The notes beneath the pieces were generated by a model. It ran no database searches. It saw only the letters and a list, made by a program, of their open reading frames with translations, and was not told where the DNA came from. A DNA stretch of 64,000 bases from assembly GCA_963674755.2 (NCBI GenBank), contig CAXXVS010000002.1, forward strand, positions 448,001 through 512,000, in the 5' to 3' direction. Source of the DNA: Desulfobacterales bacterium (GTDB taxonomy: Bacteria; Desulfobacterota; Desulfobacteria; Desulfobacterales; UBA5852). Position numbers and translations under genes: made by a program. Positions within the stretch are counted from its first letter, which is position 1. Each line of letters starts with the position of its first letter. Below, piece after piece: positions 29,133-48,835 of this stretch.

Positions 29133-31316
29133 TCAATAACGGAGACGGGCGAAATAGGTTTTTTCCGAAGCCGCACGTGCTTGCTGAAGCGTGTAAATGC
29201 CCTTTTTGGCCAACAGAGGAATTAATTTCAGGAACATATTAGCGGTTGCCAGTGCGTCGCCCATCGCTGTGTGGCGTCCCGTAACGTCGATTCCCAATCG
29301 CTGGGCAATGGTCATGAGGTTGTGGTTTTCCTGGGCCGGATGAACCACGTGCGACAGCAGCATCGTGTCCAGCACCGGATTGATAAACCGAATCCCGGTT
29401 TCGGCTTCCTTGATCTGCAGCATCCGCATGTCAAAGGCGGCATTGTGGGCGACCAGGATCGTGCCTTCGGCAAACTGATGGAAGCGTGGCAGAACGTCGC
29501 GGATGACAGGTTGCTCGCGAAGATCCTTTTCCTGGATACCATGAATTTGGATCGATTCCCAGCGCAAGGGCCGCATGGGGTTGACCAGCTGGTCGAAGCG
29601 GTCGTCGGCCACCAGACGGTTGTTGACGATGCGGACGGCCCCGATGGAGATAATCTCATCCCCACCCCGGGGGTCGAGTCCGGTCGTTTCGGTGTCGAAA
29701 ACGGTATAGGTCAATTCCGTCAGCCGACGGTTGTCGACGGAGGGATCCTGACCGGGCTGATTGAAAAGATCGAAATCATAGAACTCCGGCCGGCTGTCCG
29801 GGATGATCGTAGGTTGGCGCGGCAGCTCGCAGGCGGTCTGGGGCACGGCCGGCAGGATCAGTCGCAATCCCGACCAACCACGTGACGGTTTGCTGTAGGG
29901 CCAAATTTCGGCATCATGGAGCCGGATGACTTCTCCCAGGGTCAGCGGCAGCCCCTGATCGGGCAGACTTAAGACATTGTCTTCCCAGGTGCGGACCGTG
30001 TCCATGCGAATCGGCCTTCCCTTCCAGCGAAGATCGAAATAGATCAATCCGTCGGTTTTACGAACCCGGCACGCAAATTCGCGCACATCGACTTCACTGC
30101 TGAGCCGCTGTAGCAGAAACAGTACGGCCAGGGAGAATGAGTAGTTATCCGTTCCCAGCTGAAGGTCTTCTTCATAGGTTTCGGGACGAAATTTAATCTG
30201 CAGCAAATGATTGGCCTTGACCGCAATTTTTTCCAGCATGGTAGACGCGCGTGTTTCGATCAGGGGCCATTGGGAATGCGGCCGTTGAAGATGCTTCGAA
30301 GAATGCTGCCCGAGAATGTTGCCGATGCGAAGGGATTCCTGGTAGATGATGCGGATAAATTCACGGCTTCTCTCAAGAGGCATCTCCGGAAATTCCATCA
30401 TCGTTTCAACGGCAGCACGCACACCAGCCAGGGGGGTCCGTATGCCGCCACTCAATGATTGCAGGAGGAGATGGGTCTGATTGTCCGATTCAATCTGCGA
30501 TGTTATGTCGGAAAAGATCAGGATGAAACCGGTGAAGAGGCGCTGATAACTGAGGACCGGAACCATCTCGCTTCGCAGGTGGCGACCCTCGTTGCCGACG
30601 ACGACAAAGTAGGAAGCCACCGTGGCCTCGTCACTGGCGAGCTTTTCGGTGATTTCAGCAAGCGCTTCGGAGACGAGATGGCGGTCGATGATTTCGAAAA
30701 TGGACCGGCCCAGTCCGAAGAACGGGTGTGCGGGGGGGGGCGGGTCGGCGGCGGTCAGCGCCTCTTCACCATGGTCTTCCCTCCTGGGGCTGAAGAAGTT
30801 GCGGGCCTGTCGGTTGAAGAAGAGGATCTGCCCGTCGCGGTTGCATATCAGAACCCCTTCCGGAAGTTCAGACATGATGACGGCCAGAATGTTTTTTTCT
30901 TTTTCAACCTCGGATTTGGCTTCCAGCACGCGGCTCGTGACAGCATTTTCCAGCTGTTGGTAGTGCTCGGCGTTTTCATTGATGGTATCAATCACGCGGT
31001 TGACCACCTTGCTGCCCTCGCGTTTGATCCGGTGGCCGGCGTTGACGGTGTGGATCAGCTCGATTTCTTCGGGGAGCCGGTTGAGGGGCAGAATATAACT
31101 GTGGAAGATGCCGTCCAGAGCGAATCCAATGGCGGCAATGAAAAGGATTATGGCAACAAAAATGTAGATGAAGTGGGTTTTGACAATGTCCATCAGCATG
31201 ACCTGTTGATCCGGAAGCAGTTGCTGCCAGAAAAACAGCGCCATACCGACGAAGATCAGCATGGTGATGATAATCGACACCCCGGCGAACCACCAGAATT
31301 TATTCGTCGGATCCAT
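29133..31316 (-). CDS. Membrane sensor-like protein (TM, PAS, degenerate HisKA) fused to a DnaQ/DEDDh 3'-5' exonuclease
   Basis: Two N-terminal TM helices; PAS (LPEGVLICNRDGQILFFN); HisKA-like LSGGIRTPL; Exo motifs DTETTG, HNAAFD, HTAMGDA. Confidence 0.85.
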   Translation of the reverse strand: MDPTNKFWWFAGVSIIITMLIFVGMALFFWQQLLPDQQVMLMDIVKTHFIYIFVAIILFIAAIGFALDGIFHSYILPLNRLPEEIELIHTVNAGHRIKREGSKVVNRVIDTINENAEHYQQLENAVTSRVLEAKSEVEKEKNILAVIMSELPEGVLICNRDGQILFFNRQARNFFSPRREDHGEEALTAADPPPPAHPFFGLGRSIFEIIDRHLVSEALAEITEKLASDEATVASYFVVVGNEGRHLRSEMVPVLSYQRLFTGFILIFSDITSQIESDNQTHLLLQSLSGGIRTPLAGVRAAVETMMEFPEMPLERSREFIRIIYQESLRIGNILGQHSSKHLQRPHSQWPLIETRASTMLEKIAVKANHLLQIKFRPETYEEDLQLGTDNYSFSLAVLFLLQRLSSEVDVREFACRVRKTDGLIYFDLRWKGRPIRMDTVRTWEDNVLSLPDQGLPLTLGEVIRLHDAEIWPYSKPSRGWSGLRLILPAVPQTACELPRQPTIIPDSRPEFYDFDLFNQPGQDPSVDNRRLTELTYTVFDTETTGLDPRGGDEIISIGAVRIVNNRLVADDRFDQLVNPMRPLRWESIQIHGIQEKDLREQPVIRDVLPRFHQFAEGTILVAHNAAFDMRMLQIKEAETGIRFINPVLDTMLLSHVVHPAQENHNLMTIAQRLGIDVTGRHTAMGDALATANMFLKLIPLLAKKGIYTLQQARAASEKTYFARLRY

Positions 31317-31719
31317 CAGCCAGTTCCAGCAGCTTTCTTACGTTGTCCATGATTTCAGAATTGGAAAAGGGCTTGGTGATGTAACCATCGGCGCCGGAGG
31401 CGATTCCCTTGGCCACGTCGATGTCGCGGGTCATGGCTGAAACGAACAGGATGCGTGTGCCTGCCAACTGAGGGGTCTCGCGTACCATTTGGCAAATTTC
31501 GAAGCCGTCCGGATCAGCAATCATGGCTTCCAGCAGGACTAGGTCCGGATTGTAATCCACAATGAACTGAAGGGCGGCTTCACCGCTACTAGCAGTCCGA
31601 ACCTCGTAACCGCTCTGTTCCAGGAGATATTTGAGGGGAATCGTGGTACCCGGCTCGTGGTCCGCTATGAGAATGCGGCCTCGCGGGCGGGATGTTGGGT
31701 CGGGTAGATCCGCGGCCAT
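31300..31719 (-). CDS. Single-domain response regulator (atypical receiver)
   Basis: REC fold ILIADHE...PDLVLLEAM...GADGYITKPF. Confidence 0.88.
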   Translation of the reverse strand: MAADLPDPTSRPRGRILIADHEPGTTIPLKYLLEQSGYEVRTASSGEAALQFIVDYNPDLVLLEAMIADPDGFEICQMVRETPQLAGTRILFVSAMTRDIDVAKGIASGADGYITKPFSNSEIMDNVRKLLELADGSDE

Positions 31720-32009
31720 AAGAAACCCCGTATGAGATTGACCCATATTGGGAATAATCCTGCCGGAGGGGACTCCTTACAACGTTCACCAGGCGATTTA
31801 TTGCGATCCGGCAGTCTAAGCGCCGACAGCATGGCGGTTCATGCGCCGGCGCTTAAGATTGCCTGGTGTGCTGTTGCAGCGGACCTTTTTATTGATCGGC
31901 AGGCCCGGCCGACGATGATTGCGGGACGCCCCCCCCGCATTGCCTGCCCGAAGGGTAGGGATTCGGTCAGGCAACACGGAGAGGTCATCCCGTTCGGCAC
32001 AGGTTCGGA

Positions 32010-32096
32010 TTATCCGAAAACCCCCATGCCAAACAATGAGACCCATATGATGGAAAACCCTACCAGAACGATCATCCATACGTCTTCTTTTTTCAT
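32010..32096 (-). CDS. Small single-TM peptide, 28 aa (not in ORF track)
   Basis: AAGGAG 8 nt before ATG; MKKEDVWMIVLVGFSIIWVSLFGMGVFG*. Confidence 0.7.
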   Translation of the reverse strand: MKKEDVWMIVLVGFSIIWVSLFGMGVFG

Positions 32097-32157
32097 GGTA
32101 CATTCTCCTTCAAAAAAGCTTGGCTTCATGAGTGGAATAAGTCCGCGGATCCCAATA

Positions 32158-33939
32158 TCAGGCTTCCTTGACCACCGTCATGGTTTCAACTTCGGCGCGC
32201 TGGATCTGGGTCTCGTTGGTGGTGGACATTTCAGCCTTGAAGCACAAGGCCCACATCATGATGATGCCCAGAATCCACCAGGCGATCTGCCAGGACCACA
32301 GGCTCGGGAAACCGCTGAAGGAAAAGGCCGTGTTGCCCCAGATACAGGCCGGGCCGATGGCAAAGAAATACCACACCGGGACGGCGACCTTCATGACCTT
32401 GCGCCAGGCCGCGCCGGATTCGCTGGGGGCATCGATGTCGCTCAGGAAGGTACGCACTTCCTGCTGCCGTTGAACCGTTTCCTCGTTATCCTTGATGCCG
32501 ATGCCGCGGCAGATGTAGGCGAAGACCGCTGCCGTGAACAGACCCCAGAAGGCGCAGTGCATGGACAGGGGATTGGGCCACACCCTGTAGGTCAGGGCCA
32601 CGGCGATCATGCCGGCAAAGATGCCGATCACGGCCCCCACTGCGGGGAAGCGGAAGCCCCACAGGACGCCGGCCAGCAGCAGGTACATCAGGAAGCCGAA
32701 GGCGGTGGCCAGGGCGCCCAGAATAACGAGGGCCGCCGTGGATGTCAGACCCACGGCGAGCGCCGCAACGGTCAGAATGGTGGCCATTAGACGATTGACC
32801 CAGATCTGTTCCGCGTGGGTGGCTTCCTGTTTTTTGATGTAGCGCCAGTAAACGTCGCGCAGCAGGATGGACCCGCCGGTGCCGATGTACGGCGCAGCCG
32901 TGGAGTGAATGGCCGCGATGGCACCCATGAAGACGACCCCCAGCATGACCGGTGGCAGGAAGCTCTTCATCAGGGTCGGTACGACGGTCGCTTGGTTGAT
33001 GTCCAGGAAGGCCGGGTTGCCGGCTACCTGGAGAACCTTGGCGCCCATTCCCTGGAAGGCGGTGAAGAAGAACAGGGCGAAGCCCACCACGAAGGTGGAC
33101 ATGAAGGCCTGCTGCCAGGCCAGGGGTTTCGGGGATTTGATCCCGAAGGTCCACATGGTGAAGGCCGGAGAAGACTGGATGCCCATGAGGGCGAACATGT
33201 AGGTCAGGATCATGACCGAGGTCCAGCCGCCGCCCAAACCGAAGTTGATGACTTTGGGCACGGTCAGGAATTTCGGATCAAGAGCCTTGATGGAAGTGGA
33301 AAAAGCTGTCCAACCGCCGAATTCTGGCGCTTTCATGACGTAGAAGCCCAGGATGATGATACCACCCACCAGGAGGACGAACTGGATGACCCCGACCCAG
33401 GTGGAGGCCTTAAGGCCACCGGTGCAGACATAAAACCATACGATGAAGGCCAGGAAGATGGCCCCGTAGGCCGTGGGCACACCGGCGATGACGTTGAACA
33501 GGGCGCCGGCCGCCATCAGCTGGACCGCCGAATAGAAGATCGAATAGAGGACTGCGGTGGCGACAACCAGCCAGCGCAGGGTTTCATTGTTGTAGTAGTA
33601 GGCATACATGTCGCCGGGGGTGATGAACCCGTAACGTTTGCCCATGAGCCAGGTGCGTTTGGAGAAAAACGTACCGGTGATGGGAATCGTCAGTACGTAA
33701 AACGATGCAAACGCATAGGCCAGGCCGTCACGCCAGATCAGACCGGGGTGACCGATAAAGGTCCACCCGCTGAAGGACGCGGCCGTGGCGGCGAGTAGAA
33801 ATGCGAAGAAGGGGATGGACCGGCCTGCAATTGCGTAACCGGAGGATGTCTTCTCGGTAAAATACCCCTTGAGCCCCCAGTAGAAGCAATAGACGATATA
33901 CAGGCCAAGCATGATATAGACCCAGGTTGTTCCGCTCAT
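32158..33939 (-). CDS. Sodium:solute symporter family permease (probable acetate/monocarboxylate uptake)
   Basis: AASFSGWTFIG, GGLKASTW, many TM helices; directly downstream of acs. Confidence 0.9.
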   Translation of the reverse strand: MSGTTWVYIMLGLYIVYCFYWGLKGYFTEKTSSGYAIAGRSIPFFAFLLAATAASFSGWTFIGHPGLIWRDGLAYAFASFYVLTIPITGTFFSKRTWLMGKRYGFITPGDMYAYYYNNETLRWLVVATAVLYSIFYSAVQLMAAGALFNVIAGVPTAYGAIFLAFIVWFYVCTGGLKASTWVGVIQFVLLVGGIIILGFYVMKAPEFGGWTAFSTSIKALDPKFLTVPKVINFGLGGGWTSVMILTYMFALMGIQSSPAFTMWTFGIKSPKPLAWQQAFMSTFVVGFALFFFTAFQGMGAKVLQVAGNPAFLDINQATVVPTLMKSFLPPVMLGVVFMGAIAAIHSTAAPYIGTGGSILLRDVYWRYIKKQEATHAEQIWVNRLMATILTVAALAVGLTSTAALVILGALATAFGFLMYLLLAGVLWGFRFPAVGAVIGIFAGMIAVALTYRVWPNPLSMHCAFWGLFTAAVFAYICRGIGIKDNEETVQRQQEVRTFLSDIDAPSESGAAWRKVMKVAVPVWYFFAIGPACIWGNTAFSFSGFPSLWSWQIAWWILGIIMMWALCFKAEMSTTNETQIQRAEVETMTVVKEA

Positions 33940-34307
33940 ACCGTACCTCCAATGGTTTCCTCATATGCCACTTCCGGTAGACATGTGTCACCAGGCAATC
34001 GGCATAATGGTTTGTAGCCATTTATAAGACTCGGGAAGAATGTATCACCTCCTTTCAGATGCGGTTAGCCACCCTGGAGCGGCGCTGCCCGGCCATAGGC
34101 TGTGCCGCCGGGGCTGCATCGGGTGGACGCGTCGCCGCGCGCGGCAGGTGCGGGCGGCGACCCGTGGGCCTGTGGTTCACCTTCCCGGGCGGCCGGGCGG
34201 CCGCCTGGAAGTTCGCCATCCGGAAGGGCGGGCCGGGAGGTGCGCGGAGGTCCGGGCGACGGATAGCGCCAGCGGCCGTGGGACGGCTGCCGGCGTGTGG
34301 AACTTGG

Positions 34308-36341
34308 CTATTTCTGGACCTGGTTCCGGATCGTTTCGACAACGTCCGGGTTGGCCAGGGTCATGACATCCCCCACATCGGTATTGTTGGAGATGGACGC
34401 CAGCACGCGGCGCATGATTTTGCCCGAACGCGTCTTGGGCATGTCGGGCACGATCCAGACCTTACGCGGTTTGGCAATCGGGCCGATTTCGGAAATCAGG
34501 GCATCCATCACTTTCTTGGCAATGGCATCGCTGGCCTCGAACCCCGGTTTGAGGGAGATGTACATATCCGGCGTCACCCCCTTGATGTCGTCCTTGACCG
34601 GGACAACGGCGGATTCGGCCACTTCCTCCACCACTAGGGCGGCGGATTCCAGTTCCTTGGTGCCCAGTCGATGACCGGAAACGTTGATGACGTCGTCGAT
34701 GCGGCCCAGAATCCGATAGTAGCCGTCCGGGGCCTCTACGGCGGCGTCCCCGGTCATGTAAGGCCAGTCGCGCCAATCTTTGCTGTCGGGGTTTTTGCAG
34801 TAGCGTTCGAAATAATTGGTCACAAAACGGGCACGGTCGCCCCAGATGGTCTGGAACATGCCCGGCCAGGGATTCTGGATGCAGATGTTGCCGGCCTTGC
34901 CGGCGCCCCGCGGCAGTTCCTTGCCTTCGTCGTCGTAGATGATGGGGTGGATGCCCGGCATGCCTTTGCCGGCGCTGCCCGGTTTCATGGGGGAGATGCC
35001 CGGCAGGGTGCTGCAAAGAAAACCGCCGGTCTCGGTCTGCCACCAGGTGTCCACGATGGCGGCCTGCTTCTTGCCGACCACATTGTAATACCATTTCCAG
35101 ACTTCCGGCTCGATGGGCTCCCCCACAGTGGTCATGTGCTTGAACTTGTAGTTGTACTTGGCGGGTTCGTCCGGGCCGATCTTGCGCAGGGCGCGAATGG
35201 CCGTGGGTGCGGTGTGGAAGATGTTGACATCCAGGTCCTGGGCGATGCGCCAGGGGCGTCCCGGATCCGGGTAGTTGGGAATGCCCTCGTAGATCACCGA
35301 AGAGGCGCACAGGGCGAGAGGGCCGTAGACGATGTAGGAGTGGCCCGTAATCCAGCCGATGTCAGCCATGCACCAGTAGACGTCTTCGGGATGGATGTCC
35401 TGGACATATTTGGAGGTCCCGGTCACGTAGGCCAGATAGCCGCCGGTGCCGTGCTGGCACCCCTTGGGTTTGCCGGTGGTGCCGCTGGTGTACATCAGGA
35501 AGAGCGGATCCTCGGCATTCATTCTCTCCGGTTCAATTCGGGCACCGTAGTAATCCTTCAACTTTTCGTTCACCATGAAATCCCGGCCTTCCACAACCGG
35601 CGTCTGGGCCGAGTACTTGCCGGGGTAGCGCTGCCAGATGAGAACCTTGTCGACCTTCTGGCCTTCATTGGTTGCCTTGGCCACGGCTTCATCAGCCTTC
35701 TTTTTATGATCGAGGAGTTTGCCACCACGATAGTAGGAATCAATGGTGATGAGCACCCGGCTGCCCGAGTCCACGATGCGGTCGGCGGCGGCATTGCCGC
35801 TGAAACCGCCGAAGACCTGGGAGTGGATGACGCCCAGGCGGGCGCAGGCCAGCATGGTAATGGGCAGCTCCGCACTCATGGGGAGGTGCAGGGTGACGCG
35901 GTCGCCGCGCTTGAGGCCCGCAAAATCCCGCAGCAGGGCCGCCATTTCATTTACCCGCACATAAAGCTCCTGGTAGGTGATATGCTCGACCTTCTCTTCT
36001 TCCAGTTCGGGAACGAAATGAATGGCGGTTTTGTTTTTGTTTTTGGCGAGATGGCGGTCGATGCAGTTGTAGCTGGCGTTAATCTTGCCGCCCTTGAACC
36101 ACTTGTAGCAGGGTGCGTCGCTGGTATCGAGAATATCGGTCCAATACTCGTACCAATCCAGCATGTCGGCGTATTCTTTAAAGCAATTGGGGAAATTGTC
36201 CAGACTGAAACGGTCGTAGATCTTCTCATCCGTCATGTTGGCCTGGGCCACGAAATCCCGCGGCGGAGGGAAATAGTCTTCTTCTTGCCAGTGTACCGCG
36301 ATTTGAGCTTCCGAAGTTTCGACGACTTCCTTTTGACTCAT
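34308..36341 (-). CDS. acs: Acetate--CoA ligase
   Basis: YTSGTTGKPKG, ADIGWITGHSYIVYGPL, DTWWQTETGG, PKTRSGKIMRR. Confidence 0.97.
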   Translation of the reverse strand: MSQKEVVETSEAQIAVHWQEEDYFPPPRDFVAQANMTDEKIYDRFSLDNFPNCFKEYADMLDWYEYWTDILDTSDAPCYKWFKGGKINASYNCIDRHLAKNKNKTAIHFVPELEEEKVEHITYQELYVRVNEMAALLRDFAGLKRGDRVTLHLPMSAELPITMLACARLGVIHSQVFGGFSGNAAADRIVDSGSRVLITIDSYYRGGKLLDHKKKADEAVAKATNEGQKVDKVLIWQRYPGKYSAQTPVVEGRDFMVNEKLKDYYGARIEPERMNAEDPLFLMYTSGTTGKPKGCQHGTGGYLAYVTGTSKYVQDIHPEDVYWCMADIGWITGHSYIVYGPLALCASSVIYEGIPNYPDPGRPWRIAQDLDVNIFHTAPTAIRALRKIGPDEPAKYNYKFKHMTTVGEPIEPEVWKWYYNVVGKKQAAIVDTWWQTETGGFLCSTLPGISPMKPGSAGKGMPGIHPIIYDDEGKELPRGAGKAGNICIQNPWPGMFQTIWGDRARFVTNYFERYCKNPDSKDWRDWPYMTGDAAVEAPDGYYRILGRIDDVINVSGHRLGTKELESAALVVEEVAESAVVPVKDDIKGVTPDMYISLKPGFEASDAIAKKVMDALISEIGPIAKPRKVWIVPDMPKTRSGKIMRRVLASISNNTDVGDVMTLANPDVVETIRNQVQK

Positions 36342-36714
36342 ACCTACCCCCATTAAGTTTAGATGTTAGTAAGGAATTGAACACGTACAATCGAAGCGTC
36401 CTGCTTGAATGGCTTATGTCGGTGGCACCGTGCTGGTATTTGCTCAGGTGGCGCGGTGAAATTAAGAATATATATAGATATCAACATGGTATCGATTATA
36501 TGGCTAAAGCGGTTTGTATGAATGGAAGGAATTATGTAAAACTGAATACATTTACTGGACAAAATTTGTCAAGTGAATTTTATTCATTAATAAAACTTTT
36601 TTTGGAAAAGTGCCGGTGCAGGAACCAAAATACAATAAATAAATAATAAAAACAGTTAGATGAAAAATATAGGGTCGAATGTGAAAACGCTGTTAGCGGA
36701 ACGCCAGCCGCTTG

Positions 36715-37172: not shown

Positions 37173-38117
37173 ATGGCCGATCAGTTTTCCAAAAAAATTA
37201 TGCGAAGAGCGTTTGTCAAAACGGTGGTACGAAGAATATTTGCCCTGGTGGCTTTGTGTGGCATGGTCTATGGCCTGGTGGCCCTGGTTTACGCTTCCAA
37301 GACGATCTACAAAGTCAATGAAAACTACGCCGTCGTGCTGGAGCGCTTTGGCGGCCAGCGCCAGGCCATCACGGCCATTGGCTGGCACGTGCGGCTGCCC
37401 TTTTTTACGCGCATCGAACAGGAAGTGTCCCTGATGAACCAGATCCTCAATCTGGGCGGCTCCACGGAACCGATGCGCATCATCACAAAGGAAAACGTGG
37501 CCTTGTGGACGTCGGCCCTGATGACCTATCGGATCCGGAACCTGCATACCTGGGCCATCGAGAATCTTCATCCGCTGCAGCTTTTAAGTGGTGATTATGA
37601 CGGTATTGTCAAAGACATTCTCCAAGCCCAGAAGGTCAATCAGCTGATCAGCGACCGCGAAAGCGTCAAGGAAAAGATATTTAAAGCGCTCAAGTCCCGC
37701 CCCATCAACGAAGGCGGTCCGACCCTGGAACAAAAATACGGCATCGAAGTGGTCAGCTTCGTTTTAAAGGAAACCCGTTTCGGCGATAAGCTGGTCGCGG
37801 CAACCGAAGAAAAAAAGCGCCGCGAGCTGATCGCCGAGGCGGAAAACTATGCCGCCGACCAGGAGGCCAGCCGCATCCGCAAATTGTATGCCGCCTATCT
37901 CGAGGGTATCCAGGCGCTTCAAAAGGGACTGGGGGGCGTCAATCACGCCAATGACACGGCGCTGCTGCAATTCCTGGTGCAGCAGCAGTGGGCCGCCGCC
38001 TACGAGAAAAACCAGACCGGACAGAGTACCATCGTGATCCAGAATACCCAGGATAACGTTCCCCTGGCACTACCCGCTCCGGCACCCAGCCCCACAGGTG
38101 CCAAAAAAGGAGAGTAG
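37173..38117 (+). CDS. SPFH/Band 7 (HflC-like) membrane protein
   Basis: GAGGAG RBS; one N-terminal TM helix, YKVNENYAVVLERFG, GWHVRLPF, ITKENV, YGIEVV, A/E-rich coiled coil. Confidence 0.88.
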   Translation: MADQFSKKIMRRAFVKTVVRRIFALVALCGMVYGLVALVYASKTIYKVNENYAVVLERFGGQRQAITAIGWHVRLPFFTRIEQEVSLMNQILNLGGSTEPMRIITKENVALWTSALMTYRIRNLHTWAIENLHPLQLLSGDYDGIVKDILQAQKVNQLISDRESVKEKIFKALKSRPINEGGPTLEQKYGIEVVSFVLKETRFGDKLVAATEEKKRRELIAEAENYAADQEASRIRKLYAAYLEGIQALQKGLGGVNHANDTALLQFLVQQQWAAAYEKNQTGQSTIVIQNTQDNVPLALPAPAPSPTGAKKGE

Positions 38118-41100
38118 TGATGGCGCGTCGGGTCACCAGACAAGTCAAGTATGTTCGCCTGCCGGAAAAGCGTATCCGTGAAATCGATGCCCTGGTTTCC
38201 TCCTGGCCTTACGAGACAAGGGCCTTCATGCGGGCCCGCTTGAACCAGTACAAGCCGCGGACGGGTTTTCTCAATTTTCTGATGGACCGGTTTCTCTTTC
38301 TGGCCGTGGGCGTTCATGACAAAAGCTTTGAAATCATCAACGACCCCGAGGTCATCACGGATTGGCAGATGCGTTTCGAGATCTCCGGGCAGCGCAATCC
38401 CCAGGATGCCTGGAACAAAATTCTCGACAAGGAGATTTCGGCCCGCGATCATCTTTACTTGCTGTCCCTGCTGGACCGGGAACTGCGCGACATCCACGTG
38501 CCCTATGAGCTGCAGTCCCTGTTCGAGAAAATCTACCGCGCCCATCTGCGGAAGGAATACCTTTCCGATCCCGAAGTACCCAAATCCCCGCTGGTTCTGG
38601 TGGTCGGGGTGAGCGGGAGCGGCAAGAGCGCGACCGTGGAAAGGGTCATCGAAGATGTCATTTTCGCCAATGAAATTTTACCGGAAATCGATTTGCAGCA
38701 GAAGAAGGAAGTCATCCTGGCGGATTTGCCCTTCTGGAAAACCATCGAAGAAGTGGATCCGACCCTGGCCTTCGAGATTTCCCGGCGGAACCAAACCCGT
38801 TTTTATCAGGGATTGAGCAAAATTCCGCTCATTCGCTGGCTGTTCAAAAAACGCATTGCCCTCAACCTGACCGAACTGGGTGAGCAGGGTATCCCGGTGG
38901 ATTACGCCATCGTCACCCCCAACGAGTACCAGACGGCCCTGGCCGGCGAACCCGGCAATTACTTTCGCAAGGCCATGGGCGACCCCAAGAAAACGGCCAT
39001 CCGCCATATCGAGGAGGCGCACAGCGCCTTTGGCAAGGCCAGTGAAGAACAGAGCGGACCCCAGCGTCAGCAGCGCACCCTGGTGGATGCGGCCAACATC
39101 ATTTTGGATGAGATTGCCAGCGGCCGGCGCGACTGCGTGCTGGTGGCCACGACTGACCAGCCGGAGCGGATCGATGGCGCGATTTATCGCCGATTCGTGG
39201 AAAAAGGGGCCATCATCGATCTGGGCGACTACTGGCAAAACAAGGCCAATCTGGCGGAAGTCGTCCGCATCGAGCTCCAGCGCAACGATATCCATCTTAT
39301 CGGTCCTGAAAATGCGCTGCCCCGCAGGCAGGTCGACACCCTTCAAGCGGTTGATCTCGATCAGGCGGTCGAGGGCATCTACCGTTTGTTTCGTGAGCGT
39401 AGCCTGACCCTGACACCAGCCTATGTCCGCAAGCTGGTGCATTCCATCATTCAGATTCGCCATACCTTCGATGCGGCCTTTCTGGACGATGCCGATCTCG
39501 TGCGGCAGGCCTTTGAACTGGTGGCCAAGAATACCTATGGCGATCTCTACAAAAGGGTCGTCGATCACATGGATCGTCGGGTGAAGTGGGAGGAGTACAT
39601 CGGCGACATCAAATACGTTTTTTCGGAGATGGCCAACAACTGCCTGCAATATGGTCTCAGCGAGGAAAAGGGCGTTGTGCTCAACGGCCCCCCGGGGGGC
39701 GGAAAGACGTTTCTGGTGCGCACCTGGCTGAGCGAAAACAGCGCCATTCACGACATCGCCACCAGCGCAAGCGCGCTCCAGGATCCGATCAATCCGGTGG
39801 AGGGGGCCGTGGACAATATGGAGAAAGTCTACGACATCGCCAAGATGATCGCCCCCACCGTCATTTTTTTTGACGAAGGTGATGCCCTGGCCCCCAAGCG
39901 CAGCAGCACCGGGGGATCTCCCCAGGACAAGCTGACCAATAAGTTTCTGAGCCTGATCGACGGTGAGATTCCTTTGAACCAGGTGTTTACCGTATTGACC
40001 ACCAACCGGCTCGATATTCTGGACCCGGCCCTGATCCGTTCCAAACGGCTCAAGGTCTTGGAAGTGACCGGCCATCTGCGCAAAAGCGACATCGCGGCTA
40101 TTGTGGCAGCCTCCCTGGGGGATGTGCCGCTCGAAGCGGGGCTTGATCTGTCGGCCGTGGTGGAAGCCGCCCAGAACATCTGTAACACGCCGGCCGATTA
40201 TACGGCCTTTGTGGAAAAGGCGCGCTCGCTGCGCAGCACGGAATATGAAATCATTCTCCGGCTGCGCAAGATTCCCGCCATGTCGGAAAAGGACAACCGC
40301 AACTTTATCAAATTCAATCTCAAGACCCTGCTGGGAATGCTCAACGCCCTGCAGGCGCCGGCCGAGATGATCAACCAGGTTCGCGAACACCCGGGACAAT
40401 TTATTCAACAGCACCGCATGGTGCTGGATCTGATCGCCGGGGTTGAAAACGAGATCCAGTACCCCCTGCGCCGCGCGCATCTGGAATCGGCGCGGAGCGA
40501 GATCTCCCAGAGCCCGGTAAAAAAGGGCAAGGTCCAGCTGGATGAATTCCTGGAGGGCGAACTCAGCGAAGAGCCCCAGGTGGGGTTTATCGTCGGGGTG
40601 GGCGCCAATGACGTCACCGGTGTCCTGCTGCCCATCGCCACCAGCCTCAACTACAAAATGGCCCCAGATAAAGTGTTGGTGACCGGGGCGGTTTCGACAT
40701 CGGCACCTGGAGCGGCCGAGTTGGACATGTCGGTCAAAATGACCCAGCAGTCCGCCCAGGAAGCCCTGACCCTGGTGAAGAACTATCTCCAGCACCTGCA
40801 GCCCAAGATCAGCATCCCCCGGCTGTTCGGGGAGTTTCTCGACCATTACACCATCCACCACCAGCTTTTGACCGCGTCCTACAATGTCGGGGGACCATCG
40901 GCCGGTTATGCGCTGGCCCTCAATACCCTCTCGGCCCTGCTGATGATACCGGTCTTAAACGATTTCGGCGTTACCGGAGCGCCCTGGACACGGGGCGCCA
41001 AAAAAGGCGAAATTGGCGGTTCGGTCATCATCGGCGGTCACAAGAAGAAAACTGAGAAAGTCCTGCTGCACCTCAGACGCATGTACATGCCCCTGCAAAA

Positions 41101-41536
41101 TTACAAGGACCTCGAGATCGATTATCTGGAAAATTACTGGCTCCAGGACAAAGATGTGCTGGGGGTCACCCATTTCGGCGATCTGGTGCCGGAGGTGCTG
41201 TGGCTGGGAGACGAACAGAACATCCGGGTGCAAAACCTGATCGCGACCCGCATTCGCTACAAGCTTGAAAAATGCCGCCAGCTCCAACCCGATCCGGTGT
41301 TGAAGGAACAGATTGTGGAGACCAAAACCATCCTGCGGGAGGAAATGGAGGCGGAGATCATTCGACGGCTGCAAGCCTTGCGCAAATACATGCGCAGCCC
41401 GGTGCGCGATCCCCACATCTCGTTGGAAGAGATTTTCCGCGACGGAGTCCGCAACCCGCGGCAGCGCCTGTCGGCCGTGGCTCAGCTGGTGCGCAACGGA
41501 CTCAACCGGTTTCGTCGGGAGTGCCGTCCGGAATAG
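38117..41536 (+). CDS. Tandem AAA+ ATPase fused to a Lon-type (S16) serine protease domain
   Basis: Walker A GVSGSGKS and GPPGGGKT; Walker B FFDEGD; SRH TTNRLDILDPALIR; Lon motifs GGPSAG, GVTG, IGGHKKK. Confidence 0.85.
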   Translation: MMARRVTRQVKYVRLPEKRIREIDALVSSWPYETRAFMRARLNQYKPRTGFLNFLMDRFLFLAVGVHDKSFEIINDPEVITDWQMRFEISGQRNPQDAWNKILDKEISARDHLYLLSLLDRELRDIHVPYELQSLFEKIYRAHLRKEYLSDPEVPKSPLVLVVGVSGSGKSATVERVIEDVIFANEILPEIDLQQKKEVILADLPFWKTIEEVDPTLAFEISRRNQTRFYQGLSKIPLIRWLFKKRIALNLTELGEQGIPVDYAIVTPNEYQTALAGEPGNYFRKAMGDPKKTAIRHIEEAHSAFGKASEEQSGPQRQQRTLVDAANIILDEIASGRRDCVLVATTDQPERIDGAIYRRFVEKGAIIDLGDYWQNKANLAEVVRIELQRNDIHLIGPENALPRRQVDTLQAVDLDQAVEGIYRLFRERSLTLTPAYVRKLVHSIIQIRHTFDAAFLDDADLVRQAFELVAKNTYGDLYKRVVDHMDRRVKWEEYIGDIKYVFSEMANNCLQYGLSEEKGVVLNGPPGGGKTFLVRTWLSENSAIHDIATSASALQDPINPVEGAVDNMEKVYDIAKMIAPTVIFFDEGDALAPKRSSTGGSPQDKLTNKFLSLIDGEIPLNQVFTVLTTNRLDILDPALIRSKRLKVLEVTGHLRKSDIAAIVAASLGDVPLEAGLDLSAVVEAAQNICNTPADYTAFVEKARSLRSTEYEIILRLRKIPAMSEKDNRNFIKFNLKTLLGMLNALQAPAEMINQVREHPGQFIQQHRMVLDLIAGVENEIQYPLRRAHLESARSEISQSPVKKGKVQLDEFLEGELSEEPQVGFIVGVGANDVTGVLLPIATSLNYKMAPDKVLVTGAVSTSAPGAAELDMSVKMTQQSAQEALTLVKNYLQHLQPKISIPRLFGEFLDHYTIHHQLLTASYNVGGPSAGYALALNTLSALLMIPVLNDFGVTGAPWTRGAKKGEIGGSVIIGGHKKKTEKVLLHLRRMYMPLQNYKDLEIDYLENYWLQDKDVLGVTHFGDLVPEVLWLGDEQNIRVQNLIATRIRYKLEKCRQLQPDPVLKEQIVETKTILREEMEAEIIRRLQALRKYMRSPVRDPHISLEEIFRDGVRNPRQRLSAVAQLVRNGLNRFRRECRPE

Positions 41537-41705: not shown

Positions 41706-42179
41706 ATGCCTGCCGAAGCATTCCAGGACAGCTACCCCGATGACCTCAGCCATTGCTACGGATGCGGCCGTCTCAATCCCCACGGACTCCAGATCAAAAG
41801 CACCTGGGAGGGGGAGGAAGCGGTTTGCCGATATACGCCCAAGTCCTACCATACCGCCATACCGGGGTACGTGTACGGCGGTCTGATCGCCTCCTTGATC
41901 GACTGCCACAGCACCGGGACCGCTTCCGCCGCGGCCCGCCGCGCCGCTGGTGATGACGCTGACGCCCAGGAGGCGTTCCGTTTCCTCACCGCCTCGCTGC
42001 ATGTCAACTACCTCAAACCCACCCCGATCGATGCGGTTCTGGAAGTCCGCGCCCAGATCAAAGAGATCAAGGGCCGCAAGGTGGTGATTGCCTCGCGGCT
42101 GATGGCGGGCGGGCAGGTTTGCGCCACCGGGGAAGTGGTTGCCGTTCAGGTGCCGGAACATCTTATGCCCGGTCGTTAG
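41706..42179 (+). CDS. PaaI/hotdog-fold thioesterase
   Basis: CYGCG..NPHGL, GYVYGGLIASLIDC, TASLHVNYLKPTP. Confidence 0.9.
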   Translation: MPAEAFQDSYPDDLSHCYGCGRLNPHGLQIKSTWEGEEAVCRYTPKSYHTAIPGYVYGGLIASLIDCHSTGTASAAARRAAGDDADAQEAFRFLTASLHVNYLKPTPIDAVLEVRAQIKEIKGRKVVIASRLMAGGQVCATGEVVAVQVPEHLMPGR

Positions 42180-42867: not shown

Positions 42868-42935
42868 GCACCGGTGCCTTCGGGTGATGGACGCAATGTC
42901 CGGTCGTGGCCCAGCGCGCATTACGAGGTAGAACC

Positions 42936-43484
42936 ATGCGACTTGATATCAAAGACGTGACCGCCGGAGGCGTTCGGATAAGGGCGGACCTCGACCCGGA
43001 GCAGTTGAAGGATCTTGACGCCCTTCTATCCGGCCAGAGCTGCACCTTCCAGGGGGCACTGGCCGTAACGTTGCAGGTCACACCGACAGCAGACATGTTC
43101 CAGGTGACGGGGCGTGTCAATGGAGCCGCTGTTCTGGCCTGCAGCCGCTGCCTGGCGCCGGTCCAATGGCCCTTAAACGCCGATTTCACCCTAACCTTCA
43201 CCCGTCGCCTGCCCGGCGATGCCTTGGACGAGCCGCCGGAATCCCGCGAGCTCGAGGCGGAGGAATTGGGGGTGGTGCTGTTCGAAGGCGATGCGATCGA
43301 TTTCCGGGATGCTATCCAGGAGCAGGTGATCATGGCCCTGCCCATGCAACCCCTCTGCCGGAAAGACTGCCAGGGCTTGTGCACCCAATGCGGAGCCAAC
43401 CTGAATGACGGGCCGTGCCGTTGCTCCGGGAAGGATGTCGATCCGCGTCTGGCCGTTTTAAAAAACCTTAAACTGGATGGATAA
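42936..43484 (+). CDS. yceD: DUF177/YceD family protein
   Basis: CSRCL, LPMQPLCRKDCQGLCTQCGANLN, DPRLAVL. Confidence 0.9.
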   Translation: MRLDIKDVTAGGVRIRADLDPEQLKDLDALLSGQSCTFQGALAVTLQVTPTADMFQVTGRVNGAAVLACSRCLAPVQWPLNADFTLTFTRRLPGDALDEPPESRELEAEELGVVLFEGDAIDFRDAIQEQVIMALPMQPLCRKDCQGLCTQCGANLNDGPCRCSGKDVDPRLAVLKNLKLDG

Positions 43485-46307: not shown

Positions 46308-47579
46308 ATGATCCGATTCGACGCGCTGCCCTATACCAACGCCCCCCTGCCCACCCATTGCCCTGTTACCGGATTACCGATCTACGGCCACTCCAGCTGG
46401 ACCTATAGCAGTCCCGGCGGCAGCTACCGTTTGCGGGTGAGCTTCATCGGCGACCGGATCGTTTGGTTGCAGCCCACGGGCTATGTCCGTTTAGCGTACG
46501 CCCAGGCGGGAATGGCGCTCCTGGAAGACGTGCTTTTTTCCATGCTGCCCAAAGCGTCGCCGTTTATTGCCATCGACGATTACTCGGCCATCAGCGGGGC
46601 CACCCTCAACGCCCGGCGGTTCGTCATTCAGACGCTGCGTCAGGAACGACGCATGCGAAGCTATATCGTCTACGGCGCACCACCTGTATTTCGCCTGGGG
46701 CTCGGTTTGAGCCGGCGGTTCAGGCTCTTTCCCTTCGAAGCCGTGATCGCCCGTAATTATGATGAAGCGGTCACGGCCGCGCATGTCCGCCTATACCGGG
46801 CGGAAAACCATTCCGAGGAAAGATCTAACGCGTCCCGCTCCGCCGCTGATGGCGAAATCGATGGTGCCGGCCTGGCAACCGATAACGCCGGGGACCCGCT
46901 GGCCCCCTATGCAGATGAACTGCTGGACATCGTGGGCAGCATCACCTTGGAGCCTTACGGGATGGTGCCGGTCTCACGAACGGTGCCTCTGGATCACCCT
47001 TTGCGTCCGGTTTACGACGCTCTGGGGTTGCTCCGGGAAGACATGCAAGCTATTCTCCGAGGTCATCGTGAAGCCCGCGCCAAGGTCGAGGGACGCGAAA
47101 AAGAGCTGATGGAAAAGCAGATCCTGCTCAACGAGACCCATACGACCCTCAATGTCTTGGTCCACACCCGGCAAGAGGAACGTCGGCGGTTTGAAGCGCG
47201 GATCAAAGACCGTTTTCAGACCTTGCTGCAGCCGCTCCTGGAGGGCTTTGAAAGCACCGTCATGACCCCCCGCCAACGCGAGCTGGTCCAGTTGCTCCGT
47301 CAAATGTTGCGCCATATCGGCGTCTGTCTGGCAAGCGAGGAACATGTTGTGCGAAAGGCGTTCACATCCCGGGAGCGCTTGATCGCCTATCTGCTGATCC
47401 TGGGGAAGAGCCCGCACGCGATCGCCCGCCTTTTAGAATGCTCGCCCCGCACCGTCGCGAACCATTGCCAGCGGATGCGCGCTAAGATCGGACTGGCCGG
47501 GCGCGTTCCCACGCTGCAGGACTGGCTGAGCGGGCAGGTTTCCACCGAACTTGAGCAAGCGGGGCGAGGGCGCCCATGA
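46308..47579 (+). CDS. LuxR-family regulator with unnamed N-terminal sensor domain
   Basis: C-terminal FTSRERLIA...IARLLECSPRTVANHCQRMRAKIG; coiled-coil linker. Confidence 0.82.
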   Translation: MIRFDALPYTNAPLPTHCPVTGLPIYGHSSWTYSSPGGSYRLRVSFIGDRIVWLQPTGYVRLAYAQAGMALLEDVLFSMLPKASPFIAIDDYSAISGATLNARRFVIQTLRQERRMRSYIVYGAPPVFRLGLGLSRRFRLFPFEAVIARNYDEAVTAAHVRLYRAENHSEERSNASRSAADGEIDGAGLATDNAGDPLAPYADELLDIVGSITLEPYGMVPVSRTVPLDHPLRPVYDALGLLREDMQAILRGHREARAKVEGREKELMEKQILLNETHTTLNVLVHTRQEERRRFEARIKDRFQTLLQPLLEGFESTVMTPRQRELVQLLRQMLRHIGVCLASEEHVVRKAFTSRERLIAYLLILGKSPHAIARLLECSPRTVANHCQRMRAKIGLAGRVPTLQDWLSGQVSTELEQAGRGRP

Positions 47580-48835
47580 GCCGTGCAGGCCGTTCCGTCA
47601 TTTCCGCTGATCCCGAAAGCTTCCCCTCCCGATGCCCTTTCTCCGGTCTCCCCATCGATACCCGGAAAGAATGGCAGTTCACCAATGCCGCCCAAACCTA
47701 TCGGACCGCCATCGCCCTGATCGGCAAGCTTATCTTCTGGGTGGTCCCCCGGGGCTACGTCACGGAGAATGACATGCAGCAGGCCATCCGGATGGCCGCC
47801 GGCATCAAGGCCGAGGTTCGTCCCGGCAATGCCCCGTTCGTCTTTATCGAGGATTTCCGCCATGTGAAAGGGGGCACCGCCGCCGCCCGCCGCCTCTATC
47901 TCGAGTTTACCAATTCCCTGGACGGGCTCTTGGGCTCCTTCCATTACGGCCTGCCGCCCTTTTTCCGCCTTAGTTTCAACCTCTCCCGCAGACTGCACCT
48001 GCATCGCTACCGGGTGCGGATGGTCCCGCGTTACGAAGACGCCGTCCATTCCGCCCTGGCGCTTTTAAAAGAGAATGGCCTGGCCATTCCGTCGGCAGCT
48101 TTCCCGCTGCGCCTTTTGCCTGAGGAAAAGGGGCCAGGGGAGGCCGGCCGGCCGGCCTTGCCGCCGCTGAGCGCTGCGTCTGACCACCTCTCCGCTCATG
48201 TGGACCTGCTCCTGGCCCATCTGGGTGAGCTCGATCTGGAACGCCCCGGAATCCCGGAGCCCCCCAGGGCGGCCCGGACCAGCGCCATGCAGCCTGTATA
48301 TGAAGCCCTTACGTTCCTCAAGTTGGATATGGACCAGTTTCTGGCGGAGCACCGCAGCCTCATGGACGCCCAGAGGGAACGCCATCAGAAGCTTCTCCAA
48401 AAAACGGCGGCCATCGAAGCCCGCAACCGGGAGCTGCAAGCCTTGCTGCAGAAAAGTGGGGAAGACCAGACCCGCTTGGGTGAGAACGCACGCTGCAACG
48501 TTCAAACGCTTTTGAAACCCCTGATCGCGATGATGGCCCGGGATGCCCGCAGCACGGAACAGCGGGAATGGATCGACGGCCTCAACGAGCGAATCGATGA
48601 TCTGGCCCACGACCTCCTTCCGCGTCTCGATTTAGGCAGCTATCGATTGACGCCCCGGGAAATTCGCATCGCGCGGATGATTCGGGATGGTGCCCGGTCG
48701 CAAACCATCGCCCGTCAACTGGGGCTGTCGATACGTACGGTGGAGTCCTTTCGCCGCCGGTTGCGGGATAAACTGGGCATCCGCGGCCAGCCGCGGAATT
48801 TGCGCACATTGCTGCTGACGATTCCGGACCACTGA
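47576..48835 (+). CDS. LuxR-family regulator, paralog of the upstream gene
   Basis: LTPREIRIARMIRDG..SQTIARQLGLSIRTVESFRRRLRDKLG; ATGA overlap. Confidence 0.87.
   Translation: MSRAGRSVISADPESFPSRCPFSGLPIDTRKEWQFTNAAQTYRTAIALIGKLIFWVVPRGYVTENDMQQAIRMAAGIKAEVRPGNAPFVFIEDFRHVKGGTAAARRLYLEFTNSLDGLLGSFHYGLPPFFRLSFNLSRRLHLHRYRVRMVPRYEDAVHSALALLKENGLAIPSAAFPLRLLPEEKGPGEAGRPALPPLSAASDHLSAHVDLLLAHLGELDLERPGIPEPPRAARTSAMQPVYEALTFLKLDMDQFLAEHRSLMDAQRERHQKLLQKTAAIEARNRELQALLQKSGEDQTRLGENARCNVQTLLKPLIAMMARDARSTEQREWIDGLNERIDDLAHDLLPRLDLGSYRLTPREIRIARMIRDGARSQTIARQLGLSIRTVESFRRRLRDKLGIRGQPRNLRTLLLTIPDH

Follow-up and report, generated by a model that had tools for sequence, protein, structure and literature searches.

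The window analysed here is a stretch of 64,000 nucleotides from a Desulfobacterales bacterium (assembly GCA_963674755.2, contig CAXXVS010000002.1, positions 448,001 to 512,000). It contains two abutting genes, one encoding an SPFH/Band-7 protein (P0122) and the other a protein with two AAA+ modules, D1 and D2, followed by a Lon (S16) peptidase domain (P0121, the AAA-AAA-Lon protein). The pair is a real and conserved AAA+ protease architecture, apparently undescribed, in which the SPFH gene is an obligate partner; it is probably an additional route of protein degradation at the membrane. Its features are listed below with lengths in amino acids (aa), expect values (E) and, for AlphaFold2 (AF2) models, the predicted local distance difference test (pLDDT) and predicted template modelling (pTM) scores; SD stands for Shine-Dalgarno.

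37173..38117, + strand: SPFH/Band-7 gene P0122, 314 aa; Pfam Band_7 E 5e-17; AF2 pLDDT 75.8; layout of basic N-terminal helix, single transmembrane helix, SPFH domains, coiled coil and conserved C-terminal helix
37236..37295, + strand: predicted SPFH transmembrane helix, aa 22-41; Kyte-Doolittle 19-residue maximum 2.41
38107..38122, + strand: gene junction with SD-like AAGGAG, SPFH stop TAG (38115-38117) and protease ATG (38120)
38120..41536, + strand: AAA-AAA-Lon protein P0121, 1138 aa; AF2 mean pLDDT 82.1, pTM 0.66
38120..38566, + strand: N-terminal domain, aa 1-149, family-specific and mainly helical according to the secondary structure of the model
38567..39559, + strand: AAA module D1, aa 150-480, from Pfam AAA and conservation
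38657..38887, + strand: D1 insertion of about 77 aa between Walker A and B; its helices, seen in the model, are basic and in part aromatic
39560..40519, + strand: AAA module D2, aa 481-800, with a helical insertion in the lid
40532..41209, + strand: Lon (S16) peptidase domain, aa 805-1030; Pfam Lon_C E 1e-7
40898-40900 and 41048-41050, + strand: catalytic codons Ser927 and Lys977
41210..41536, + strand: C-terminal helical hairpin and variable tail, aa 1031-1138

The protease ATG at 38120 starts two bases past the SPFH stop codon. It was favoured over the GTG at 38117 because the SD-like AAGGAG lies 7 nucleotides upstream of it and because Met1 is conserved in an alignment of 181 sequences; the protein therefore has 1138 aa and its dyad is numbered Ser927/Lys977. 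A preliminary description, made from the letters alone, had correctly found both open reading frames (ORFs), the quoted motifs and the abutting SPFH gene, whereas its GTG start touching the SPFH stop is the less likely one and its numbering (1139 aa, S928/K978) does not stand. Across 107 loci, 64 of the gene pairs overlap and 84 lie within 3 bases of each other, starts being approximate, and translational coupling of the two genes is probable on this spacing. Neither gene carries an insertion or deletion in contigs from the DNA runs of two studies, one of which may be the window's own source, and an RNA run yielded no more than short contig pieces.

Every proposed domain scored above its Pfam cut-off. 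Scanned singly, D1 reached 27.5 and D2 74.2 bits (cut-off 21.2) and Lon_C 32.2 bits (cut-off 21.1); Band_7 scored 62.9 bits against 23.6. No Pfam match at E 0.01 was found for the N-terminal domain (aa 1-157 scanned), and none for the C-terminal hairpin and tail, which is the least conserved region of the protein (mean column conservation 0.54).

Every one of the 181 close homologues has the Ser/Lys dyad, and so do all 140 aligned family members, distant archaeal ones among them. The Pro-Ser-Ala-Gly motif and Lys977 are invariant down to 33% identity, including a split form described below, and Pro926 marks an A-type centre. The Ser-Lys spacing is 49 residues in 140/140, whereas it is exactly 42 in LonA and LonB (PMC9569914). 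Among 48,161 representatives, the peptidase model matched the E. coli Lon peptidase domain 1rr9 with Z 18.5 and a root mean square deviation (rmsd) of 2.6 over 179 residues, and the E. coli, Archaeoglobus, Bacillus and other LonA peptidase domains with Z 18.4-18.8 and rmsd 2.6-3.4; the Lon-like domains of RadA, BrxL and ComM gave Z 14.6-15.7. The Lon protease-like C-terminus with a Ser-Lys pair that had been proposed is thus borne out, and we judge the peptidase very likely to be active.

A protein search gave 717 matches among 7999 scored candidates. The 120 of these that were listed are near full length and 64-96% identical, and those listed with a taxon belong mostly to the Desulfobacterales/Thermodesulfobacteriota. 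In species genomes, 311 of 588 pattern matches were relatives and 74 loci were retained. Searching 1.84 billion representatives with the peptidase domain yielded 73 matches, with full-length relatives at 33-38% overall identity among them, and a separate alignment search added more. The few named proteins among the 28 distant members come from Woesearchaeota, Nanoarchaeota or an 'archaeon'. A tree of 49 D2 rows placed the 37 family rows on one side of a 100/100 branch and 12 Cdc48/Pex/FtsH-type rows on the other; support for bacteria against the distant group (38/81) is too low to give a direction of transfer, the outgroup being these 12 rows from our searches only. In genome samples the protease gene was present in 66/301 of the order and 11/401 of the phylum, mainly family by family (for example 8/9, 8/9 and 0/9). 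Carriers include the cultured Desulfosarcina variabilis and D. alkanivorans, which makes the system testable. Five of 154 loci have a frame change in the protease gene and seven have a stop inside the aligned stretch, some of these perhaps natural ends.

All 63 genome loci with at least 1 kb of upstream DNA have the SPFH gene directly upstream; among the remaining 11 of the 74 loci it is whole or partial in four, and seven have no upstream DNA. It is also directly upstream in all 54 informative metagenome loci (80 in all), so that the SPFH neighbour noted in the window is syntenic in 117/117. These informative loci are all bacterial-type, with proteases more than 50% identical to the window protein, and the linkage counts cover this type, the sole archaeal-type locus (L075) having no upstream DNA. 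Conversely, this SPFH clade was found in 65 of these 301 genomes of the order and 11 of these 401 of the phylum, always in genomes carrying the protease. The lone mismatch (G608; L173:3425-5578, G608:C12) is a deletion or misassembly from about SPFH codon 58 to about protease codon 461, which removes most of the SPFH protein together with the protease N-domain and D1 and leaves an open D2-Lon frame of 714 codons. As far as genome content goes, protease and SPFH clade are obligately co-inherited. Since kin are not independent, these figures are counts and not tests; likewise, the correlation between SPFH and protease identities (r 0.86, 780 pairs of 40 loci) is no evidence of binding because shared descent predicts it. 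No third conserved gene was found, the top neighbour family reaching 34/108 loci. In 108 upstream regions of 250 bases, sigma-54, CIRCE, sigma-32 and sigma-70 motifs were not above shuffles; the SD site was the only enriched pattern (85/108), and promoter scans of the window were near chance.

The two AAA modules differ in how completely their motifs are kept. D2 has Walker A K529, pore loop P559-V560-E561-G562, Walker B D585-E586, sensor 1 N629 and R640/R643, and K529, D585, E586, N629, R640 and R643 are kept in 181/181 close homologues. D1 has Walker A K169, pore loop L274-A275-G276, Walker B E298-E299, an Asp at sensor 1 and R357-R358; the Walker A Lys, the catalytic Glu and the Arg-Arg are retained in the close homologues. 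The best solved relatives of D2 are VAT/Cdc48/p97. A D1 profile without the insertion had a Cdc48-type protein as its best outside match (E 1.5e-14) and other classical AAA proteins next, which places D1 in the classical clade as well. The two modules did not match each other by direct BLAST, and a match between them was obtained only with the insertion-free profile (hhalign 81%). Two classical, Cdc48-like AAA+ modules, as first described, are therefore present.

The protease model was built from 140 sequences, and the top Foldseek matches listed for it are Cdc48/p97 throughout. Over residues 121-833 it aligned with Cdc48 D1-D2 at 486 residues (rmsd 9.6, Z 20.1). Residues 486-1030 aligned as one unit with the Yersinia Lon AAA+peptidase (408 residues, rmsd 4.0, Z 20.0), although the predictor may here echo a learnt Lon. 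In the model, D2 sits on the peptidase in a Lon-like manner.

Foldseek matches of the SPFH model include HflK/C, prohibitin, stomatin and QmcA entries (E 1e-13 to 1e-11), and by sequence the closest solved protein is QmcA (E 3.4e-5). The protein had been called HflC-like; its SPFH/Band_7 nature holds, but the HflC label is loose, TIGR01932 scoring 23.4 bits against a cut-off of 134.4. In 111 sequences R12, Y33 and Y40 are invariant and R20/R21 near-invariant, the Arg residues preceding the membrane helix, and the C-terminal helix is highly conserved. A Tat signal was considered for the RRAFVK of the window protein and rejected, RRxF occurring in only 50/111 homologues. In 115 sequences, about 5.6 Lys and Arg precede the membrane helix and 3.0 fall within the 15 residues that follow it. 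By the positive-inside rule this excess favours an outward-facing dome, and the SPFH domain probably lies outside the cytoplasm, as the dome of HflK/C does (PMC12048511). With an outward dome, the protease would dock below the ring instead of sitting within it.

The D1 insertion has a median net charge of +8 in 112 close members and +3 in 27 distant ones. Its hydrophobicity does not reach the transmembrane level, and none of the four most hydrophobic windows (fourth value 1.17) falls in it. LonB carries its membrane anchor at this position, between Walker A and B (PMC9569914); there the anchor spans the membrane and Asp precedes the catalytic Ser, whereas here the insertion is basic and Pro precedes the Ser. 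The insertion is thus a candidate membrane- or partner-contact element. A complex prediction with partial chains (protease aa 1-480 and SPFH aa 1-292) gave a score of 0.17 (mark 0.32) and counts neither for nor against binding. In our judgement, a physical partnership of the two proteins is likely.

Other SPFH-type genes were observed near the pair: a Band_7_1/zinc-ribbon protein upstream (L043:2570-3712 and kin, 20/108 loci) and FloA downstream (L007:7032-8021 and kin, 10/108 loci).

HflK/C-FtsH is a precedent for an SPFH-protease partnership (PMC12048511). Like prohibitin/m-AAA, it combines a classical AAA motor and a peptidase with an SPFH partner, and the sidedness is probably the same, with the dome outside and the motor cytoplasmic. 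It differs in having one AAA module, a zinc peptidase, transmembrane helices in the protease and an HflK/HflC pair, where the present system has two AAA modules, a Ser-Lys Lon peptidase and a single abutting SPFH gene; a Pfam scan of the AAA-AAA-Lon protein gave no M41 peptidase match. Stomatin-NfeD operons (QmcA-YbbJ, Pyrococcus PH1511-PH1510) also join an SPFH gene to a protease, but the partner there is NfeD.

Cdc48/p97/VAT shares the tandem classical modules, provides the best sequence and fold matches and has, in eukaryotic Cdc48 as in the bacterial members here, a non-aromatic D1 loop. Unlike it, the AAA-AAA-Lon protein has a fused peptidase, a helical N-domain, a D1 insertion and a D2 loop that is mostly non-aromatic in the family; TIGR01243 (NCBIfam) scored 80.4 bits against a cut-off of 802.65. 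The N-terminal beta-barrel that serves Cdc48/p97/VAT as a substrate/cofactor domain (PMC11188069) was not seen, aa 1-157 having no Pfam match and the model being mainly helical there.

The Lon subfamilies A, B, C and BA are described with one HCLR-type AAA+ module each (PMC9569914). They share with our protein the peptidase fold and the stacking of AAA on peptidase, and LonA also the Pro before the catalytic Ser, but here there are two classical modules, with best matches to Cdc48/VAT, PAN and FtsH. LonC has lost its ATPase motifs, whereas Walker A and B, sensor 1 and the Arg fingers of D2 are kept throughout the close homologues. The Lon models of NCBIfam scored 18-38 bits against cut-offs of 517-891, and neither protein approached the cut-off of any NCBIfam family. 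Two ESM Atlas clusters from Bathyarchaeia/Thermoproteota (118 and 110 members, about 915 aa) have AAA and Lon_C domains in one chain (feature score 0.97, compared by description only) and are possibly a sister or parallel Cdc48-Lon fusion. The AAA-AAA-Lon protein belongs to neither HflK/C-FtsH, Cdc48 nor any described Lon subfamily. The preliminary description had not recognised the architecture, and no description of the family was found in the literature searched, a scope that covers few subscription journals and few supplements. In the parts covered, PMC11188069, PMC11237479, PMC7159879 and PMC13086221 describe other SPFH or AAA associations, and one supplement of PMC11237479 does not contain 'Lon'.

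Our preferred reading, to which we give a probability of about one half, is a Lon-type protease that compartmentalises itself, depends on ATP and acts at the inner face of the cytoplasmic membrane together with an SPFH scaffold of its own. It builds on features established in the sequences and the model, namely the D1-D2-peptidase order, the intact dyad, the intact ATPase motifs of bacterial D2, the Lon-like seat of D2 on the peptidase and obligate co-inheritance with one SPFH clade; the partnership of the two proteins and the substrates are what we infer. Six chains would stack as two AAA rings atop a Lon chamber. The SPFH protein would oligomerise into a ring, its dome most likely outside the cytoplasm as in HflK/C, and corral a patch of membrane, beneath which the protease would dock through the basic N-terminal helix of the SPFH protein and its own basic D1 insertion. 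D2 would hydrolyse ATP and pass into the chamber polypeptides that are bound to the membrane or close to it and have probably been loosened beforehand, and D1 would act mainly as an entry or docking ring. By analogy, the pair most likely works like HflK/C-FtsH. Processive, ATP-driven extraction of membrane proteins is a more tentative proposal, at best an even bet. With the odds somewhat against it, one may also picture an independently built membrane quality-control machine of sulfate-reducing bacteria and DPANN archaea. In it, a Cdc48-derived double ring on a Lon chamber, recruited by SPFH only, would extract and degrade membrane proteins with no transmembrane helix of its own, through a translocating pore loop in ring 1 of the archaeal form and aliphatic loops in bacteria.

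Such a machine would found a class of AAA+ proteases of its own, and the partnership of SPFH protein and protease would have arisen separately in it. A conserved family with two classical rings on a Lon peptidase would in any case extend the types of AAA+ protease, classical motors being listed with other peptidases in review. A two-gene system would be a minimal model for the role of SPFH rings in proteases, a question that is open for HflK/C-FtsH, and the natural pore-loop variants WYG, LAG, PIDG and PWEG probe how much aromatic grip a motor needs.

Several observations weigh against the preferred reading. A hydrophobicity scan found no transmembrane helix in the protease. The amphipathic-helix score of the D1 insertion is the highest measured, yet control regions also exceed the threshold, which makes the signal weak, and one distant member (P0132) is without most of the insertion. 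Of eight Lon_C matches in the host genome, three are strong LonA-like genes, and the genome also contains three FtsH-like genes, one gene of the proteasome-subunit family and ten Band_7 genes with three adjacent pairs among them; the AAA-AAA-Lon/SPFH system is accessory, and no missing function points to the proposed role. The SPFH cage around the protease that had been envisaged is weakened by the absence of a transmembrane helix from the protease and by the probably outward SPFH dome, while the dedicated, linked SPFH gene stands.

The motor itself raises further objections. In the 181 close homologues D1 has Glu-Glu without Asp at Walker B and Asp/His in place of Asn at sensor 1, and its pore loop 1 is non-aromatic in every one (L-A/S-G in the bacterial form). 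The D2 loop is non-aromatic in 170/181, being P-[I/V/L]-x-G in 169, and in the distant group the Walker B Asp of D2 is missing in 8/28. AAA+ unfoldases grip the substrate by aromatic pore-loop residues, and eukaryotic Cdc48 has them in D2 only (PMC7226402). Consequently, of the 'Cdc48-like double-ring unfoldase' first proposed, the tandem classical modules remain, whereas unfolding is weakened by the non-aromatic loops of both rings and the odd D1 motifs and, on sequence grounds, is unproven. The same observations would suit an ATP-gated, low-force protease whose rings bind nucleotide and gate the chamber without unfolding folded proteins, so that peptides or unfolded chains are cut at the membrane as by LonC, a precedent for ATP-independent Lons (PMC9569914). 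We regard this as unlikely, though the strongest of the alternatives: all catalytic motifs of D2 are kept in the close homologues, the D2 pore position is W/Y/F in 11/181 and otherwise I/V/L, so that the loop stays hydrophobic, and the distant group has an aromatic D1 loop in 25/28.

Slightly less probable again is that the SPFH protein is the client of the protease rather than its scaffold, the motor disassembling or clipping its own SPFH ring and so remodelling a membrane domain. Strict one-to-one co-inheritance fits an enzyme-substrate pair equally well, and the conserved C-terminal helix of the SPFH protein would suit a client. A Pyrococcus stomatin is clipped by a protease encoded in the same operon (PMC13086221) and classical AAA proteins remodel membrane-bound polymers (PMC11237479). 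If the SPFH N-terminus is inside, however, the cytoplasmic part amounts to no more than about 21 residues and the protease could not reach the C-terminus, and the close spacing of 84/107 gene pairs suggests stoichiometric subunits.

An anti-phage or other conflict system, with the SPFH protein as membrane sensor and the protease as effector, is improbable. The patchy distribution and the split between bacteria and archaea would agree with it, AAA-plus-protease pairs are known in defence, and weak generic matches to IetA and TRIP13 models were seen; but presence follows families, and the genes most often found nearby are of the housekeeping kind (hydrolases, CinA, RNA methyltransferase, acetyl-CoA synthetase-like, TraB). 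PADLOC matches span the AAA core only, with none for the SPFH protein, and no mobile relatives were found: none of 24 pattern matches in viral contigs was confirmed, and there were none in plasmids or phages.

The Lon-like scaffolds of RadA, ComM and BrxL have no conserved catalytic dyad. That the Lon-like domain here is likewise only a ring-forming scaffold, and the protein a remodeller, is very improbable, since the low Lon_C scores (27-32 bits) and the dyad spacing of 49 are outweighed by an invariant dyad motif, retained in the split form, and by a fold nearer to active Lons.

The first half of the split form is seen in six proteins, 695-733 aa long, that stop at about residue 718. The second half is seen in seven proteins (397-405 aa) beginning near residue 729, and all five of these that were read have an intact dyad. 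Four half-pairs lie on contigs of equal size (3873, 4155, 4658 and 188676), and one Pacearchaeota genome has consecutive accessions for the halves, MCK5043686.1 (720 aa) and MCK5043685.1 (403 aa). By these records, the enzyme is split into two adjacent genes in a Pacearchaeota lineage. The form is derived, as three split rows nest among full-length rows on the D2 tree (100/95), and since the break lies within the D2 lid insertion the halves probably reassemble; a programmed frameshift at the split may also occur. A separate protein, P0146 (595 aa), has a caspase-like Peptidase_C14 domain fused to the Lon domain and C-terminal hairpin of the AAA-AAA-Lon family, with degraded dyad motifs.

Other genes surround the pair in the window. 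Downstream, and outside the conserved unit, are a thioesterase (4HBT, 41706-42179) and YceD (42906-43484), with a 197-aa ORF without Pfam match between them. Upstream, a divergent cluster on the minus strand (29133-36353) contains, by eye, an acetyl-CoA synthetase, a sodium-solute symporter, a response regulator and an exonuclease-domain protein, of which the synthetase-like neighbour alone recurs (12/108 loci). Further downstream, 46308-48835 holds a tandem pair of paralogous ORFs, 423 and 419 aa long, with, by eye, LuxR-like helix-turn-helix ends.

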